DNA of 13,902 nt. It comes from Candidatus Heimdallarchaeota archaeon. GTDB taxonomy: Archaea > Asgardarchaeota > Heimdallarchaeia > Heimdallarchaeales > Heimdallarchaeaceae. The stretch covers positions 1 through 13,902 of the forward strand of contig JABCTC010000066.1 in NCBI GenBank assembly GCA_018238545.1, written 5' to 3'. Under the pieces are notes generated by a model. That model was not told where the DNA came from and did not search any database. It worked only from the letters and a program-made list of their open reading frames with translations. Shown here one piece after another: positions 669 to 13,902 of this stretch. The first letter of the stretch is position 1, and each line of letters opens with the position of its first letter. The position numbers and the translations under genes are program-made.

Positions 669-705
669 GTCAAACTAGCTGAATCATCTCTCAGTTGTAA
701 TAACA

Positions 706-717
706 AAGTCTTTTAAA
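706..717 (+). promoter_or_regulatory. Putative BRE/TATA promoter of DEAD-box helicase 1
   Basis: AAGTCTTTTAAA; the identical 12-mer recurs at 2210-2221 at the equivalent position upstream of helicase 2. Confidence 0.6.
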
Positions 718-742
718 GCATTGGGAAAAAATAATAATCAGA

Positions 743-866
743 GATGAGGAAGATAAGATAAGAATACTATTCTGTTTTTTCAACATTTCAGAAACTATGA
801 TATTAATTGAAAAGAATCAAACATTCGCAACAATAATACTTGGTTTTGAATCATAACTAATTACAG
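743..866 (+). ncRNA. Candidate structured 5' leader (cis-regulatory RNA), copy 1
   Basis: Blocks TGAGGAAGAT (745-754), TTTTTTCAAC (775-784), AGAATCA (813-819) and TACTTGGTTTT (837-847) recur in the same order in front of helicase 2. Blocks 1/2 and 3/4 are mutually complementary when G-U pairs are allowed. Confidence 0.55.
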
Positions 867-2144
867 ATGAAACCAATGAAATTTCAAGATTATAATATAA
901 AACAAGAAATTAAACAAGCTTTAGAAGAAATGGGGATACATACTCCAACTGATATACAGGAGAAAGCAATCCCAGCAATAATAGAGGGAGAAAAAAGTCA
1001 CATTTTAGCTCAAGCAAAAACAGGGACAGGGAAAACATTAGCATTTGCTATACCCTTAGCTGAGAAACTTGACCCATCACTACGCAATGTACAAGCAGTG
1101 ATAATGGTTCCAACAAGAGAATTATGTAAACAAGTATATCACGTAATAAGTGATGTGACAAAATATCGTCATCTTAAGGCAGTGGAAGTTTATGGGGGCG
1201 TCTCTATAGATCGACAAATACGCAACATTCGATCAGGTGCTCAAATAATAATTGCTACTCCAGGAAGACTAATTGATCTATACCATAGAAAAGCGGTAAC
1301 TTTCAAGAAAGTCAAGTTCGTGGTTCTAGATGAGGCAGATAGGATGCTTGATATGGGATTCCTTCCTGATATCGATTTCATTTTATTTGACGCTATGAAA
1401 GATGTATTTCCACGATTGTTATTGTTCTCTGCTACATTATTGGAGGAAATAAAGGAAATCGCTTCTGATTTTAGCTGGGGTCAAGAACTAATTGAAATAG
1501 ATGTCAGCAAGGACGAACTTACTGTTGCTTCTTGCAAGCAATATTACTATGAAGTTGATGACCCTAAGAAGAAGTACAATGCTTTCATTAAAATTCTGCT
1601 TAAGGAAAAACCAAGGTCTTGCATCATTTTTGTAAATACAAAAAGATGGGCAGCAATGTTGAAGAAACGGCTCATTAACGATAGAAGAATTCAATTAAAA
1701 ATAGATACTCTCCAAGGAGACATGACTCAAAAGCAAAGAGAAATAGTCATGAGTAATTTCAGGAAGAACAAAATTACCTGCCTAGTTGCTACTGATGTTG
1801 CTGCAAGAGGTTTGGATATCCCTCACGTATCTCATATATTTAATTATGATTTACCTGTTGGAAATGCTGAAAATTATGTTCATAGGATTGGTAGAACATC
1901 CAGAATGGAAAGTGTAGGAAAAGCTATTTCGATTATAGAAAGTGAACAGATGAATATGATTAGGCGTATTGAATCATTCATGAATAGAGATATACTAAAA
2001 TTATATTTGACAGAGAACGAAAGGAAAAACGACCGTGGTAGGGCTAAATATCCTCAAAGAAAGGAAAAAGAGCAAGTAACCTACAAAAAGGATAATGAGC
2101 AAGAAGATGATGATCCTTATTTAGCAGACCTCTCCCATTATTAA
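867..2144 (+). CDS. DEAD-box ATP-dependent RNA helicase (paralog 1; alternative start ATG 876)
   Basis: Full motif set: Q motif (F...PTDIQ), AKTGTGKT, PTRELC, GG, TPGRL, DEAD, SAT, IIFVNT, QKQR, TDVAARGLD, HRIGRTSR. It has a short charged tail ending in acidic EQEDDDPY and no recognisable DbpA RNA-binding domain. Confidence 0.97.
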   Translation: MKPMKFQDYNIKQEIKQALEEMGIHTPTDIQEKAIPAIIEGEKSHILAQAKTGTGKTLAFAIPLAEKLDPSLRNVQAVIMVPTRELCKQVYHVISDVTKYRHLKAVEVYGGVSIDRQIRNIRSGAQIIIATPGRLIDLYHRKAVTFKKVKFVVLDEADRMLDMGFLPDIDFILFDAMKDVFPRLLLFSATLLEEIKEIASDFSWGQELIEIDVSKDELTVASCKQYYYEVDDPKKKYNAFIKILLKEKPRSCIIFVNTKRWAAMLKKRLINDRRIQLKIDTLQGDMTQKQREIVMSNFRKNKITCLVATDVAARGLDIPHVSHIFNYDLPVGNAENYVHRIGRTSRMESVGKAISIIESEQMNMIRRIESFMNRDILKLYLTENERKNDRGRAKYPQRKEKEQVTYKKDNEQEDDDPYLADLSHY

Positions 2145-2173
2145 TTTCCTTTTTTCAATTTACCCACTTTTTC
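2145..2173 (+). terminator. Oligo-T/pyrimidine tract, putative archaeal terminator
   Basis: TTTCCTTTTTTCAATTTACCCACTTTTTC immediately follows the TAA stop. Confidence 0.45.
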
Positions 2174-2209
2174 ATTCAGAGAAGGTCTTTCTACGAATCT
2201 GTTCAATCG

Positions 2210-2221
2210 AAGTCTTTTAAA
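2210..2221 (+). promoter_or_regulatory. Putative BRE/TATA promoter of DEAD-box helicase 2
   Basis: AAGTCTTTTAAA, identical to 706-717. The TTTTAAA start lies 33 nt before TGAGGAAGAT (34 nt in copy 1). Confidence 0.6.
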
Positions 2222-2245
2222 ATGCTGTTCAAATGCACACTTGTA

Positions 2246-2365
2246 GTTGAGGAAGATTTCGAAATAAGTAATTATTTTGTTTAAGTTTTTTTCAACGCCC
2301 AAAATAATTACTCAGAATCATGCCTTCAAAGAATTGGTACTTGATTTTAATGTAATCTATAGACA
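2246..2365 (+). ncRNA. Candidate structured 5' leader (cis-regulatory RNA), copy 2
   Basis: Hairpin 1: GUUGAGGAAGAUUU (2246-2259) pairs over 14 bp with AAGUUUUUUUCAAC (2283-2296), capped by CGAAAUAA-GUAA-UUAUUUUG (GNRA tetraloop). Hairpin 2: AGAAUCA-UGCC-UUC-AAA-GAA-UU-GGUA-CU-UGAUUUU (2314-2348). Confidence 0.6.
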
Positions 2366-3823
2366 GTGATATCAATGAAATTTCAAGAATTAGATATAAA
2401 CAATAATATAAAACGCGCATTAGATGAAATGGGAATTGAAACTCCAACTAAAATACAGATTAAAGCGATTCCTAAACTTCTTGATGGTGGTAGAACACAT
2501 ATTTTAGCTCAAGCTAAGACAGGAACTGGAAAGACACTTGCTTTCGCCATTCCTATTACTAACCAGATTAGCCCTAAAGAACGCTCAGTTCAGGCAGTTG
2601 TATTAGTTCCTACTAGAGAATTATGCAAACAAGTGTATAGTGTTATTACTAACTTAAACAAGTATAGAAAATTGAAAACTGTTGAGGTTTATGGAGGTGT
2701 CTCTATCGACCGACAAAGAAAAGAGATCAAAGCTGGAGCCCAGATCGTTATAGCTACTCCAGGAAGGTTTATGGATCTTTACAGAAGAAGAGCTATTTCA
2801 TTAAATAAAGTAAGATTTGTTGTTTTAGACGAAGCAGATAGAATGCTCGATATGGGTTTTCTACCTGATATAAAGTATATTCTATTTGATGCAATGAAAG
2901 GTGTCTCTCCTCGCTTATTACTATTTTCAGCAACAATGCTTAAACAAATATCAAAGATTGCTCGCCAGTTCAGTCAAGGTGAAAAACTTGTTGAAATAAA
3001 TGTGAGCAAGGATGATATAACAGTAGCTAACTGTAGGCAGTATTATTACAAAATCAGAGAGCCTGGTCAGAAATATGCTAGTTTTGTTACACTTCTCAAA
3101 ATGGAACAACCCAAATCTTCGATTATTTTTGTAAACACAAGGAGATGGGGAGACAAACTTAGAAAGCGCTTAATACAGGAAAAAGGGCTCAATATGAAAT
3201 TCAGTACATTACATGGAGATAAAACACAAAACCAAAGAGAACGTGTTTTGAGGGATTTCAGAGATGAGAAAATTGATTGCCTGATAGCTACTAATGTTGC
3301 AGCAAGAGGACTAGATATTCCACATGTAACACACATTTTCAATTTTGATATACCAAGAGAAGGACCAGAAATATATGTCCATAGAATAGGAAGAACATCT
3401 CGAATGGAAAATGAAGGAAAGGCAATTTCACTTGTTACTAATGACCAAATGAAAATGATTCGAGAAATAGAAAAATTCATGCAAAAACCAATTCAAACGC
3501 TCTATTTCAGTGAAAATCAGCAAATTACAATAAAAGAAAAATCCAAAAAGAAATATTCAAGCAGTAGTGAAACCAAAAGGAAATCCTCAAGTTATGGCGG
3601 ATCTAAAAGGAAATCTTCAAGTTATGGTGGATCTAAAAGGAAATCTTCAAGTTATGGTGGATCTAAAAGGAAATCTTCAAGTTATGGTGGATCTAAAAAG
3701 AAATCTTCAAGTTATGGTGGATCTAAAAAGAAATCCTCAAACTATGGTGGATCTAAAAAGAAATCCTCAAACCAGGGTGGAAACAAAAAGAGCAGTCCAA
3801 TTGCAATTCCTGCAAGCGATTAA
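2366..3823 (+). CDS. DEAD-box ATP-dependent RNA helicase (paralog 2) with a basic Ser/Gly/Tyr repeat tail (GTG start; alternative ATG 2375)
   Basis: Motifs PTKIQ, AKTGTGKT, PTRELC, TPGRF, DEAD, SAT, IIFVNT, LHGD..QNQR, TNVAARGLD and HRIGRTSR. It is colinear with paralog 1 and shares long identical blocks with it (e.g. FVVLDEADRMLDMGFLPDI, ILFDAMK, HRIGRTSRME). Confidence 0.97.
   Translation: MISMKFQELDINNNIKRALDEMGIETPTKIQIKAIPKLLDGGRTHILAQAKTGTGKTLAFAIPITNQISPKERSVQAVVLVPTRELCKQVYSVITNLNKYRKLKTVEVYGGVSIDRQRKEIKAGAQIVIATPGRFMDLYRRRAISLNKVRFVVLDEADRMLDMGFLPDIKYILFDAMKGVSPRLLLFSATMLKQISKIARQFSQGEKLVEINVSKDDITVANCRQYYYKIREPGQKYASFVTLLKMEQPKSSIIFVNTRRWGDKLRKRLIQEKGLNMKFSTLHGDKTQNQRERVLRDFRDEKIDCLIATNVAARGLDIPHVTHIFNFDIPREGPEIYVHRIGRTSRMENEGKAISLVTNDQMKMIREIEKFMQKPIQTLYFSENQQITIKEKSKKKYSSSSETKRKSSSYGGSKRKSSSYGGSKRKSSSYGGSKRKSSSYGGSKKKSSSYGGSKKKSSNYGGSKKKSSNQGGNKKSSPIAIPASD
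3545..3784 (+). repeat. In-frame 30-bp tandem repeat, 8 units (degenerate first and last), encoding K[R/K]KSSSYGGS
   Basis: Consensus unit AAAAGGAAATCTTCAAGTTATGGTGGATCT; units start at 3545 (degenerate), 3575, 3605, 3635, 3665, 3695, 3725 and 3755, with no spacers. Confidence 0.95.
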
Positions 3824-12611: not shown

Positions 12612-13301
12612 TTACTTAACTGATTTTCTTAAAGCTGCAAGAGCATGTAATGTTGTCGTATCGAACACAGGTAAAGGACTATCTTCTTGTTTGATCAATA
12701 GAGGTATTTCTGTGCACCCCAAAATTACTCCTTCTGCTCCTTTGGATTTTAATCGTTTAATCACTTCAGAATAACCTTTTTTTGATTCTGATGTAAGAAC
12801 ATGATGTGTTAGCTCTTCCCAAATAACTGTATTAACATACTCTTGGTCTTCTTTGTTAGGTACAATTACTTCTATACCATATTTGCTCAAAGTTTTTTGA
12901 TAAAAATCTGATTGCATCGTGAATATTGTTCCAAGTAACCCTACTCTCGTTATCCCTCTCTCCTTTATTGCTTCTGCAGTTGCATCCATGATGCTTATCA
13001 TTGGTGTGTTGATTTCCACTACTAATTTCTCGAAAATCTTATGGATAGTGTTAGTTGCAATAATAATGATTTCCGCTCCAGCATCTTCCAAATTTCTGGC
13101 TGATTTAAGGATGATCTGATAAACCTTCTCCCAAGAATTTTCAACCATCAAATTTCTTACAACCTCTAAGTCTAGACTATCTATTATAAGTAAAGGAGAA
13201 GACGCGCCACCTTTTATCAAATTATATTCTTTAACTAGGATTTTGTAATATTCAATAGTAGATTCAGCGCTTAAACCACCAATGATCCCTATTTTTTTCA
13301 T
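12612..13301 (-). CDS. Aspartate/glutamate racemase family protein (YgeA/RacX-like, PLP-independent)
   Basis: MKKIGIIGGLS.EST..YY N-terminus, IATNTIH (T83), VGLLGT.FTM, VILGCTEIP (C196) and FDTTTLHA. Confidence 0.93.
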   Translation of the reverse strand: MKKIGIIGGLSAESTIEYYKILVKEYNLIKGGASSPLLIIDSLDLEVVRNLMVENSWEKVYQIILKSARNLEDAGAEIIIIATNTIHKIFEKLVVEINTPMISIMDATAEAIKERGITRVGLLGTIFTMQSDFYQKTLSKYGIEVIVPNKEDQEYVNTVIWEELTHHVLTSESKKGYSEVIKRLKSKGAEGVILGCTEIPLLIKQEDSPLPVFDTTTLHALAALRKSVK

Positions 13302-13406
13302 AGATATATAATTAAGAGTTCTTTATGATAAATTTTTGTCTTGTAGTCATATTAGCTACAATTGTATCAGTTTAAATGGATGGTTTAAAGCGAATATTAC
13401 GGGAGT

Positions 13407-13414
13407 TTTTATAA
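13407..13414 (+). promoter_or_regulatory. Putative TATA box of tnpB
   Basis: TTTTATAA ends about 22 nt before ATG 13436. Confidence 0.4.
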
Positions 13415-13435
13415 GAATCTCTAGGTCAACGAAGG

Positions 13436-13902
13436 ATGGCAAAGGTACTGCGTGCAGAACGTATAGAAGTGGAGTATCATCCCGCATTAAGCAGAATCTG
13501 TCATCAAGCAAAAAATCTCTATAATCGAGCAAATTTTCTGATAAAAACTTCTTTGAAACAAACAAACAAACTCCTCTTTTATAATGATCTCAACAAGTTG
13601 CTCAACCATGAAGGGTGTTATCGCGTTCTCCCTGCTCATGTTGCCCAACAAACTCTCAAACTTCTTTCTAGGACCTGGAAGAGCTATTTCCGAGCTAAAC
13701 AAGAGTGGAAGAGGAAACCTAATCTGTTCTTTGCCATGCCTAATCCCCCTAACTACAAGAAGAAGGATGGGGAAGTGGTAGCTATCTTCACCAATCAACA
13801 GGCGAAGATAGTCAATGGATTGATAGTGTTACCGAAGAAAGTGATATACACCTACAAGACAAGATTGACAGCTCAAGCAGAGTTAAGAGAAGTAAGAGTC
13901 AT
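13436..13902 (+). CDS. tnpB: RNA-guided endonuclease TnpB family protein (N-terminal 155 codons; runs off the right edge)
   Basis: My translation: MAKVLRAERIEVEYHPALSRICHQAKNLYNRANFLIK...YRVLPAHVAQQTLKLLSRTWKSYFRAKQEWKRKPNLFFAMPNPPNYKKKDGEVVAIFTNQQ...ELREVRV. The segments KNLYN.AN, LP...AQQ.LK....WKSYF, P.PP.YKKKDG and EVRV are characteristic of IS200/IS605 TnpB. RuvC motifs lie outside the window. Confidence 0.9.
   Translation, partial: MAKVLRAERIEVEYHPALSRICHQAKNLYNRANFLIKTSLKQTNKLLFYNDLNKLLNHEGCYRVLPAHVAQQTLKLLSRTWKSYFRAKQEWKRKPNLFFAMPNPPNYKKKDGEVVAIFTNQQAKIVNGLIVLPKKVIYTYKTRLTAQAELREVRV

Follow-up and report, generated by a model that had tools for sequence, protein, structure and literature searches.

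A conserved structured 5' leader shared by two DEAD-box helicase paralogs of Heimdallarchaeaceae, a candidate two-state regulatory RNA

Two neighboring DEAD-box RNA helicase genes of a Heimdallarchaeaceae archaeon are preceded by upstream regions that share five short blocks in the same order, raising the question of what these blocks are and why they stand before both genes. We examined them in a window of 13,902 nucleotides (the whole stretch of DNA analyzed) and at helicase loci of other genomes and metagenome contigs. The encoded proteins are 62% identical; the genes and the blocks (copy 1 before paralog 1, copy 2 before paralog 2) are:

876..2144, + strand: DEAD-box RNA helicase, paralog 1 (422 aa), with Pfam DEAD and Helicase_C domains and orthologues in 21 species
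2375..3823, + strand: DEAD-box RNA helicase, paralog 2 (482 aa), with Pfam domains and a K/R-SSSYGGS repeat tail
706 / 2210, + strand: block 1, AAGTCTTTTAAA
745 / 2248, + strand: block 2, TGAGGAAGAT
775 / 2287, + strand: block 3, TTTTTTCAAC
813 / 2314, + strand: block 4, AGAATCA
837 / 2338, + strand: block 5, TACTTG[G/A]TTTT

All five blocks lie where a preliminary description had placed them, with the spacings it had given (34/33 nt from TATA to block 2, 24/24 nt from block 4 to block 5). The conservation upstream of orthologous helicases that this description implied is also present: the same ordered blocks precede orthologues of both paralogs, in ~20 species each, and their recurrence is therefore far above chance. 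Block 4 was located correctly as well, yet as a conserved block it holds only in part, since its copy 1 is kept in just one portion of the paralog-1 lineage: it reads AGAATCA in the window's clade and AGAATTA in a second clade, and is missing from a seven-species clade.

Promoters, conservation and distribution of the leader

Judging by its conserved motif and its spacing, block 1 is probably an archaeal BRE/TATA promoter. The elements that delimit the leader are:

701..718, + strand: BRE/TATA promoter of paralog 1 (block 1, AACAAAGTCTTTTAAAG), invariant or near-invariant across all paralog-1 upstream regions
739..745, + strand: predicted transcription start zone of copy 1 (CAGAGAT), ~23 nt past the TATA end, matching archaeal promoter geometry
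864..878, + strand: weak Shine-Dalgarno-like UGA(U/A) region and start codon of paralog 1 (AUG at 876, with a second in-frame AUG at 867)
2205..2222, + strand: BRE/TATA promoter of paralog 2 (AATCGAAGTCTTTTAAAA), kept in ~18 of 20 paralog-2 upstream regions (2 of the 20 end at contig ends short of the promoter) and followed by a variable spacer
2243..2245, + strand: predicted transcription start zone of copy 2, inferred at 22-24 nt past the TATA box

In paralog 1, a variable spacer of ~22-25 nt separates the TATA motif from the onset of conservation, and the promoter motif AAAGTCTTTTAAAG followed by a 22-25 nt variable spacer before the conserved part is kept in four genera. Cross-species conservation begins at the predicted start zone in both copies, ~24 nt downstream of block 1 and, in copy 2, with near-invariant sequence from TGTAGTTGAGG onward, and from there continues through to the start codon. 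The leader had been proposed to start near 741-745 and 2244-2248; the predicted starts, at 741-745 and 2243-2245, agree with this and coincide with the point at which conservation sets in. With these predicted starts, a long structured 5' leader lies directly upstream of the helicase coding region. At its 3' end, the protein start of paralog 1 (MKFQDY) is kept among orthologues, copy 2 carries an SD-like GUGAU at 2366-2370 and an AUG at 2375-2377, and the 3' end of the 16S rRNA reads ...GGAUCACCUCCU. A bacterial promoter and terminator scan returned nothing informative.

The strength of this conservation was gauged against neutral and flanking sites. Between species, paralog-2 leaders have an identity of 0.89 and paralog-1 leaders one of 0.70, compared with 0.60 and 0.47 at four-fold degenerate codon sites, and with 0.43 and 0.44 in the DNA further upstream. 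The conservation of the leader thus equals that of codon positions 1 and 2 and greatly exceeds that of four-fold sites, and the earlier claim of selection is borne out, with strong purifying selection over ~130 nt. In paralog 2, not only the stems but also the loops and the linker are near-invariant. We rejected a conserved upstream ORF as the source of this signal: the short ORFs considered (UUG or AUG starts in block 2, and an AUG start in the hairpin-2 loop) do not keep their frame or their start codon from one species to the next.

The leader stands before both helicase paralogs in 22 of the 23 species of the genus, and was also found in two further genera of Heimdallarchaeaceae, whose divergent leaders retain both hairpins (described below) despite altered sequence, and in metagenome contigs (a pattern scan of metagenomes gave at least 2 true leaders, among the 120 stretches listed). 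A hairpin 1 covariance-model match in one more genus of the family is weak, does not lie at a helicase gene and is likely false. None of the 16 genomes from the other three families of the order had the leader, nor did the loci of helicase homologues outside the family, which are 54-62% identical and include Lokiarchaeum ossiferum and several metagenome contigs, have a similar one; Heimdallarchaeum endolithica has merely a shorter hairpin-1-like stem. A search of genome contigs for related loci was dominated by generic DEAD-box motifs and recovered no relatives. In the phylogenetic tree, the paralog-2 clade has a support of 99/99. The tree places the origin of the leader before the paralogs diverged, and both have retained it.

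Across the 3.6-Mb genome from which the window comes, matches to the pattern TGAGGAAGA...TTTTTYCAAC and to the hairpin 1 covariance model lie only at the two helicase loci and at C115, where a strain duplicate of copy 1 sits at a contig end. Two candidate classes were rejected on these grounds: a regulon motif, since pattern and covariance model place hairpin 1 at helicase loci only, and a mobile palindromic repeat (REP- or MITE-like), since the model's matches in each genome are confined to helicase loci rather than spread over many unrelated ones. Rfam likewise offered no match to the leader: a cmscan of the whole window (E up to 1), against families that included cspA RF01766, thermoregulators, riboswitches and archaeal sRNAs, gave nothing in 700-880 or 2200-2380, its only match being a single sub-threshold, snoRNA-like one inside the paralog-1 coding region. 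A C/D-box or H/ACA guide RNA was likewise rejected, having no Rfam support and no conserved boxes. The leader is a new RNA motif outside curated families, very probably of a regulatory kind that is already known.

Hairpins of the leader and a second, mutually exclusive fold

The conserved blocks had been proposed to pair with each other into two hairpins. The first of these is:

743..784, + strand: hairpin 1, copy 1, with 5' arm GAUGAGGAAGAU (743-754), apex AGAAU/AUUCU (761-773) and 3' arm GUUUUUUCAAC (774-784)
2246..2296, + strand: hairpin 1, copy 2, with arms GUUGAGGAAGA (2246-2256) and UUUUUUUCAAC (2286-2296) and apex CGAAAUAA-GUAA-UUAUUUUG (2260-2279)

The G-U-rich pairing of GUUGAGGAAGA with UUUUUUUCAAC was predicted in all 39 sequences folded, and the differing apical stems are as claimed (AGAAU/AUUCU at 761-773; 8 bp closed by a GUAA loop at 2260-2279). 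Pairing in the basal helix amounts to 96.2% over 42 distinct sequences, and copy 1 scores 55 bits with covariance model R1. In copy 2 the helix is 99.7% paired, with a G-U to U-G flip in L299, and across the genus and contig L224 its loop varies only among GUAA, GUGA, GCGA and GAAA. Taken alone, hairpin 1 does not show covariation above shuffled controls. Its predicted stability at 37 °C ranges from -5 to -20 kcal/mol (mean -12), and only 1-5 nt separate it from the predicted 5' end. A T7 tract in its 3' arm, ~45-50 nt into the predicted transcript, is invariant in all paralog-2-type leaders; in several paralog-1 clades the tract is interrupted (TTTTGTT, TCTTGTT) and the pairing is retained.

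The blocks might instead act in DNA, as transcription-factor operators or elements of the initially transcribed region. Block 2 does adjoin the predicted transcription start, a frequent site of archaeal repressor binding, and GTTGA...TCAAC forms an inverted repeat in DNA. The arms of this repeat, however, are 30-40 bp apart, conservation extends over 130 nt up to the AUG, and one-sided substitutions (e.g., A-U to G-U, or G-U to G-C) preserve pairing in RNA. Moreover, the pairing relies on four or five conserved G-U pairs. In DNA, and likewise on the opposite strand, these would not match, so that the pairing can be functional only as RNA and on this strand. A DNA-level signal is accordingly extremely unlikely.

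The second hairpin presents a mixed picture:

2307..2356, + strand: hairpin 2, copy 2, pairing AGAAUCA (2314-2320) with UGAUUUU (2342-2348) and, on the outside, AUUAC (2307-2311) with GUAAU (2352-2356)
791..847, + strand: second structured domain, copy 1, model 1, pairing AGAAUCA (813-819) with UGGUUUU (841-847)
791..847, + strand: second structured domain, copy 1, model 2, pairing GAAACUA (791-797) with UUGGUUU(U) (840-847), which encloses UAUUAAUUG/CAAUAAUA and GAAU (814-817)/AUUC (823-826)

Paralog-2-type leaders and other genera bear out the proposed pairing of AGAAUCA with UGRUUUU, which shows compensatory changes there: hairpin 2 of copy 2 is 94.5% paired, and contig L224 has compensatory changes from C-G to U-A and from U-G to G-C. 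The loop of this hairpin carries CCUUCAA, which is complementary to block 2 (UUGAGG). In paralog 1 the claim did not hold to the same extent, as a rival pairing fits about equally. There, the helix first proposed (84-90/112-118) is 87.4% paired, compared with 88.9% for the outer and 79.1% for the inner helix of the rival model, in whose inner stems pairs have changed in a compensatory manner from U-A to C-G and from G-C to U-A; these models were set by hand, and the outcome is ambiguous between the two. From a MAFFT alignment of the paralog-1 leaders, RNAalifold derived no consensus structure. The AGAAUCA/UGGUUUU pairing recurs in genus g10, and in paralog 1 this hairpin-2 pairing is ancestral, yet not kept in every clade.

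Together, hairpins 1 and 2 make up fold A, which hides the U7 tract within hairpin 1 and leaves the ribosome-binding site free. A second predicted fold (fold B) excludes it: block 2 pairs with the hairpin-2 loop and the hairpin-1 apex with the linker, U7 is looped out, and AUUGAUAC pairs over the ribosome-binding site and the AUG. Its further helices are:

2266..2313, + strand: alternative helix B, copy 2, pairing AAGUAAUUAUUUUG (2266-2279, hairpin-1 apex loop and 3' arm) with the linker CAAAAUAAUUACU (2300-2312), which excludes hairpin 1
2333..2376, + strand: alternative helix C, copy 2, pairing AUUGGUA (2333-2339, hairpin-2 loop) with UAUCAAU (2370-2376)

Helix B has 13 bp in the window; over 24 leaders it is 95% paired, and 4 of its pairs have changed on both sides. 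The pairing of the hairpin-2 loop with block 2 is likewise 95% paired. Helix C, which reaches over the final base of the SD-like GUGAU and the AU of the AUG, is an 8-bp perfect complement in most species and 97.8% paired overall, with an A-U to G-C change in L299.

Fold A as a whole is 97.6% paired (37-66% in slid controls), and its 4 compensatory pairs were reached by 0 of 500 shuffles; for fold B the figures are 95.8% paired and 6 compensatory pairs, and 0 of 500 shuffles reached its covariation score. Both counts reflect few independent events, come mainly from three or four divergent sequences and were made on alignments fitted to the model structures. As judged from these comparisons, predicted fold B is at least as well supported as the two-hairpin fold A. 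This evidence comes from paralog-2-type leaders; L299 shows a weaker fold B, and genus g10 has none. For about two-thirds of the species, the predicted energies of the two folds (constrained ensemble energies) lie within ~3 kcal/mol of each other, and the predicted winner varies between species. On these predictions, the leader would behave as a bistable RNA, riboswitch-like or attenuator-like, with two exclusive, conserved folds of similar stability. The preliminary description had missed this second, mutually exclusive fold and its covariation.

A constitutive role, in which a 5' hairpin blocks 5'-end-dependent decay and the remainder keeps the ribosome-binding site open, with no switch and no signal, would suit a hairpin 1 that starts 1-5 nt from the predicted 5' end. 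It would also suit a ribosome-binding site whose predicted openness equals or exceeds that of shuffled leaders, most clearly in one paralog-1 clade. Against this stand the near-invariant loops and linker of paralog 2, conserved beyond the stems, the covariation for a second, mutually exclusive fold, and the confinement of the element to helicase genes; we regard a plain stabilizer or translation platform as unlikely.

Masking of the ribosome-binding site, temperature and the U7 tract

Many lineages have 6-9-bp complements between leader and ribosome-binding site. In the 31 of 43 leaders covered, however, the unpaired probability at -13 to +4 matches or exceeds that of dinucleotide-shuffled controls at both 37 and 10 °C. 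Further, the duplex energy between leader and ribosome-binding site does not differ from that of shuffled leaders (p = 0.04-0.6), and helix C, taken as a duplex, is no stronger than in shuffled leaders. Since neither accessibility nor duplex energy beats the shuffles, we rejected masking of the ribosome-binding site as the main principle; masking may be conditional, because helix C is present in fold B. An RNA thermometer of the masking type is likewise not supported, accessibility and complementarity being the same as in shuffled leaders.

A broader, cold-shock-type thermosensor would change its fold with temperature alone and so set translation or mRNA stability, with no role for the helicase. 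The cspA 5' UTR is known to change its fold with temperature. Several features of the leader would fit such a sensor, namely a G-U-rich, marginally stable hairpin 1 (-5 to -20 kcal/mol at 37 °C), two alternative folds, and its place before a class of gene that in other archaea is cold-induced and has a long 5' UTR (PMC3590241; bioRxiv 10.1101/2021.03.08.434349). Yet the predicted balance of folds A and B has no temperature trend consistent across species, shuffled leaders mask the ribosome-binding site no less at either 37 or 10 °C, and neither cspA nor any other Rfam thermoregulator matched, making this reading rather unlikely.

The T7 tract raises the further option of an archaeal oligo-T terminator, with formation of hairpin 1 deciding between a ~50 nt RNA and the full mRNA. 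The tract never varies among paralog-2-type leaders; fold A buries it and fold B loops it out. Archaeal termination depends on U-tracts (PMC8716108), and E. coli deaD is partly controlled by termination inside its leader (PMC7430678). Such an attenuator or short RNA is nonetheless very unlikely, as several paralog-1 clades interrupt the tract (TTTTGTT, TCTTGTT) and leave the pairing intact.

Proposed mechanism and comparison with known systems

Taken together, these results indicate that the leader is very probably a functional, structured cis-regulatory RNA. Because it is structured, is conserved like a protein-coding sequence across four genera and has two exclusive predicted folds, it most likely sets the amount of helicase. 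That it acts as a two-state switch is plausible, at slightly under even chances, and that the signal it reads is helicase activity (autoregulation) is a tentative proposal. Our best full explanation, a helicase-specific two-state leader giving negative feedback, is a model to which we would give an even chance.

According to this model, each helicase gene would be transcribed from its BRE/TATA promoter into an mRNA with a ~130-nt structured 5' leader, laid out as a 5'-terminal, G-U-rich hairpin 1, a second hairpin, a weak Shine-Dalgarno and the AUG. The nascent RNA would fold locally into fold A and be translated. High helicase activity would open the weak hairpin 1 and lead to fold B, or to exposure of the 5' end and the U-tract, either of which would lower translation or stability; the outcome would be negative feedback common to both paralogs. 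Cold would slow refolding and thereby shift the balance. A more specific version, which we consider doubtful, is that the leader reads the cell's RNA-unwinding capacity, with both helicases catalyzing the transition from fold A to fold B, which masks the start codon and exposes U7. In that version specificity possibly comes from the SYGG/KR tail of paralog 2, and the helicases would refold both leaders, so that each paralog would control its own expression and that of the other.

Structured cis-regulatory RNAs are rare in archaea. Asgard archaea are the closest known relatives of eukaryotes, and the Heimdallarchaeaceae organisms considered here are uncultured. We found no structured cis-regulatory RNA described in Asgard archaea: the leader had no Rfam match, and searches of the literature on archaeal and Asgard leaders gave none. 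If true, the more specific version of the model would make this leader the first cis-regulatory RNA switch described in this group, and an archaeal counterpart of the plant DEAD element. Self-control of helicases has long been described in E. coli and more recently in plants, with RNA determinants that are poorly understood, and the leader offers a concrete case in which to test how a DEAD-box helicase might gauge and restrain its own activity. For annotation, the motif can also serve as a clean marker of helicase genes and their true start sites in Heimdallarchaeaceae genomes.

The likeliest function, resembling that of E. coli deaD and the plant DEAD element, is a two-state leader that would sense helicase activity or cold. 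The cspA thermosensor (Rfam RF01766) and the ROSE and fourU thermometers, which mask the ribosome-binding site, resemble the leader in having alternative folds and weak, non-canonical pairs before RNA-chaperone genes; the Heimdallarchaeaceae leader differs in having no cmscan match and a ribosome-binding site that is not preferentially masked. Closer in gene and length are two cold-induced archaeal genes, compared here by description only: deaD of Methanococcoides burtonii, with a 5' UTR of 113 nt (Lim 2000), and Tk-deaD of Thermococcus kodakarensis, with one of 158 nt (Nagaoka 2013), both as cited in bioRxiv 10.1101/2021.03.08.434349 and PMC3590241. These belong to Euryarchaeota rather than Asgard archaea, and the portions of the literature covered describe no conserved fold or switch for them.

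E. coli DeaD represses itself via its 838-nt 5' UTR, through mRNA stability and Rho-dependent termination (PMC7430678). Both deaD/csdA and the present genes have a long structured leader before a DEAD-box helicase gene, with remodelling by the gene's own product proposed. The Heimdallarchaeaceae leader, in contrast, has no similarity to it in sequence or structure, is six times shorter and archaeal, has a BRE/TATA promoter and no Rho, and is common to two paralogs; feedback is here only proposed. The plant DEAD element is a sensor of helicase activity for negative feedback, with specificity from a disordered RGG tail (bioRxiv 10.64898/2026.01.23.701338). It is not homologous to the Heimdallarchaeaceae leader and acts on alternative splicing of pre-mRNA, whereas here the element is the 5' leader of an intron-less archaeal gene. 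What the two have in common is a conserved RNA structure inside DEAD-box helicase genes, kept in both paralogs of a pair, and a helicase tail, RGG in plants and a disordered K/R-SSSYGGS repeat in paralog 2.

A promoter and a leader in front of each helicase gene

The window, contig C98 of G000 (a 3.6-Mb metagenome-assembled genome of 34% G+C), carries the paralogs P1 and P2, which are 62% identical; NCBI lists near-identical helicase proteins under the name Candidatus Heimdallarchaeaceae.

876-2144, P1, DEAD-box RNA helicase, in tandem with P2
2375-3823, P2, DEAD-box RNA helicase, in tandem with P1

The two genes are adjacent throughout the window's clade (G000, G002, G010, G016), and elsewhere in the genus (G001:C7, G011:C41, G012:C54, G022:C148, G023:C55) they share a contig and strand but are separated by 8-20 kb, so the tandem order is either a secondary rearrangement or the result of a loss of intervening genes.

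Checked against the window sequence, the five blocks that the preliminary description had found in both upstream regions agreed in coordinates, spacings and apical stems. Upon comparing the upstream regions of P1 orthologues from 21 species and P2 orthologues from 20 species of the same genus, we found a conserved AAAGTCTTTTAAAG, in form a BRE plus TATA box, followed by a freely variable spacer of ~20-25 nt. Past this spacer, conservation returns abruptly at CAGAGTTGAGGAAGA (P1) or TGTAGTTGAGGAAGA (P2) and lasts to the ATG. Judged by sequence, block 1 appears to be the promoter and the remaining blocks the leader, a layout suggestive of archaeal promoter geometry with predicted transcription start sites at ~740-745 (P1) and 2243-2245 (P2). 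By sequence inspection, TATA-like boxes were placed ~23-30 nt from the start codons of the racemase gene and of two ORFs, one starting at 13436 and the other ending at 591 (window 13299-13440 and 560-700). This fits leaders that are absent or very short, in line with the earlier remark that several neighbouring genes look leaderless.

A family-specific leader under selection

We measured conservation as mean pairwise identity between species. Set against four-fold degenerate sites and the DNA further upstream, the identity of the leader shows it to be under purifying selection, which in P2 matches the strength of that on the protein.

Mean pairwise identity between species, by class of site
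Leader: P2 0.89, P1 0.70
Codon position 1: P2 0.87, P1 0.83
Codon position 2: P2 0.91, P1 0.93
Four-fold degenerate sites: P2 0.60, P1 0.47
DNA further upstream: P2 0.43, P1 0.44

In the whole of G000, the exact pattern and R1 (a covariance model of hairpin 1) matched only the two helicase leaders and a duplicate of the P1 leader on contig C115. This duplicate (C115:11951-12261, at the contig end) copies the P1 promoter, leader and first codons with a few substitutions, and probably reflects more than one strain in the bin (contamination 4%) and no third locus. Across 46 genomes of the order, R1 located the element in 22 of the 23 species of the window's genus and, as a helicase-gene leader, in another two genera of this family (G040 and G041; G043, in two copies). 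A single weak match away from any helicase gene in G045, of a third genus, is probably false, and none of the 16 genomes from the other three families had the element. All strong matches inspected lay immediately in front of a P1/P2-type helicase gene; metagenome contigs L147 and L224 supplied further variants. No similar leader was seen at homologues outside the family (54-62% identity), including Lokiarchaeum ossiferum and several metagenome contigs, and Heimdallarchaeum endolithica showed no more than a hairpin-1-like stem, of shorter length and 22 nt past a TATA box. The annotated TTG start of the latter's helicase (CP084167.1; L252:470-510) is probably too far downstream, as the conserved N-terminus (..IEFNELPL..) runs upstream to a GTG within GGTGATAAAAATAGAATTC. 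The element itself is a family-specific structured leader that runs from the predicted start site, is restricted to P1/P2 helicase genes and is under strong selection.

In a tree built from the N-terminal 132 residues, P2 and both G043 copies formed one clade (support 99/99), while the P1 type grouped with genus g10, L224 and Lokiarchaeal homologues. Since the two-hairpin leader is present in L224 and g10, it must have existed before P1 and P2 diverged, and both lineages kept it. The two P2-type genes of G043 stem from a lineage-specific duplication (support 100/99), each with its own diverged leader (C50:1872-2004, C105:108-250; loci L291, L299), and are a second, independent case of a leader kept after gene duplication.

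Two predicted, mutually exclusive folds

Fold A consists of the two hairpins proposed in the preliminary description. Hairpin 1, GUUGAGGAAGA with UUUUUUUCAAC, was predicted in 39/39 sequences folded for it and, among 42 distinct sequences from both paralogs, was 96.2% pairable versus 55-68% with the partner strand slid. Covariation in these 42 did not exceed shuffled controls because the arms are too conserved. The upper part is lineage-specific in sequence and always forms a stem (AGAAU/AUUCU; UUAGAA/UUCUA; AAAUAA/UUAUUU, with a GUAA, GUGA, GCGA, GAAA or UCGC loop; UUAGG/CCUAG plus UCGU/ACGA); L299 has a G-U to U-G flip. With four or five G-U pairs, hairpin 1 is RNA-only and specific to this strand; that the blocks serve as a DNA-level operator is highly improbable.

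In P2-type leaders, the pairing of hairpin 2 (CUUAGAAUCA with UGAUUUUAGG) is upheld across sequence change: AAAAUCG, AGGGUCA/UGAUUUUGGG and one-base-bulge variants still pair, and L224 has compensatory changes at two adjacent pairs (C-G to U-A and U-G to G-C). Over 25 such leaders, in a model-guided alignment fitted to fold A itself and holding few independent events, fold A was 97.6% paired, with 4 pairs changed on both sides versus 0.6 expected (0/500 shuffles as high). The counterpart claimed for P1, AGAAUCA/UGGUUUU, holds in the window's clade, a second clade (AGAAUUA) and genus g10, and breaks down in a seven-species clade that lacks the pairing. A rival model of this second domain, GAAACUA with UUGGUUU(U) around GAAU/AUUC, has compensatory pairs of its own, and the two models appear to fit about as well. 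In the P2 leaders of G010 and G016 (L008:1237-1396, L009:2863-3021), a 21-nt insertion duplicating the UAGGUUAAACUAUAG segment lengthens the spacer from hairpin 2 to the ribosome-binding site, so this spacer tolerates length change.

Folded singly, P2 leaders flip between fold A and another fold, B. There, the linker (2300-2312) pairs with the hairpin-1 apex loop plus 3' arm (2266-2279), over 13 bp in the window; block 2 (UUGAGG) pairs with CCU(U)CAA, the sole conserved motif in the otherwise variable hairpin-2 loop; and AUUGAUAC, in the 3' part of that loop, pairs with GUAUCAAU. The last includes the AU of AUG and shares the 3' end of GUGRU, a motif judged SD-like by comparison with the end of the 16S rRNA (GGAUCACCUCCU). 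Folds A and B cannot coexist, as they have strands in common. Over 24 leaders, in a model-guided alignment likewise fitted to fold B itself and with few independent events, fold B was 95.8% paired versus 24-50% in slid controls, with 6 pairs changed on both sides versus 1.1 expected and a covariation score of 0.129 versus 0.105 (0/500 shuffles as high for either). Loop position 2 is C only with linker G, in three separate lineages; UUUUG/CAAAA becomes UUGUCC/GGAUAA in L224, and AUUGAU/AUCAAU becomes AUUGGU/ACCAAU in L299. In L299 fold B is weak, and genus g10 lacks it. Constrained ensemble energies of the folds lie within 3 kcal/mol in roughly two-thirds of species, the predicted winner being species-dependent, with no consistent temperature trend. 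The modelling suggests that the leader has two exclusive folds and that compensatory changes lend some support to each.

Elsewhere in G000, the 16S rRNA gene (contig C86, minus strand, ~94.2 kb from one end) has a ~30-nt insertion immediately 5' of the GGGGAACCUGCGG / GGAUCACCUCCU 3' end, which makes it an expansion adjoining helix 45. The insertion forms a hairpin of 10 perfect base pairs, GAAAUUUAGA-UGAG-UCUAAAUUUC.

Possible function and known systems

A functional, structured cis-regulatory leader is very likely. The thermosensor put forward earlier, in its plain form masking the ribosome-binding site, was not borne out: at both 37 and 10 °C, the predicted openness of the site equalled or exceeded that in dinucleotide-shuffled leaders (31 of 43 leaders), and the best leader-to-site duplexes were no stronger than shuffles (p 0.04 to 0.6). 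We consider a pure thermosensor unlikely.

A two-state switch is a serious possibility, though we hold it tentatively. Hairpin 1, being local, would form first on the nascent RNA and yield a translatable fold A; opening this weak, G-U-rich hairpin would let the RNA reach fold B, with the start codon paired and a U7 tract exposed. An attenuator relying on that U tract seems quite improbable. Opening might in addition leave the 5' end prone to decay. A leader acting as a constitutive stabiliser is a shade less likely than the pure thermosensor. For the switch, the obvious catalyst would be a DEAD-box helicase, giving negative feedback common to both paralogs, and cold, by slowing refolding, would bring more helicase expression. 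Such helicase-sensing autoregulation is conceivable, and more doubtful than the switch itself.

The RNA motif is undescribed, with no match in Rfam and no description found in the literature searched; its kind is already known, since DEAD-box helicase genes with regulatory leaders have been described. Its interest lies in the Asgard host lineage, its retention in two paralogs across the family and the evidence for two exclusive conserved folds. Archaeal deaD genes induced by cold are reported to have 5' UTRs 113 and 158 nt long (bioRxiv 10.1101/2021.03.08.434349; PMC3590241). The proposed feedback would mirror that of E. coli DeaD, which represses itself via its own 5' UTR (PMC7430678). A plant DEAD element senses helicase activity, a disordered RGG tail giving specificity (bioRxiv 10.64898/2026.01.23.701338). 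The C-terminal tail of P2 (window 3545-3823) is made up of 30-bp tandem repeats coding K/R-SSSYGGS units, and orthologue lengths of ~410 to 482 aa imply that it differs in length among species. Disordered as well, this repeat tail may, by analogy, have a role in RNA-target specificity like that of the RGG tail of plant DRH1.
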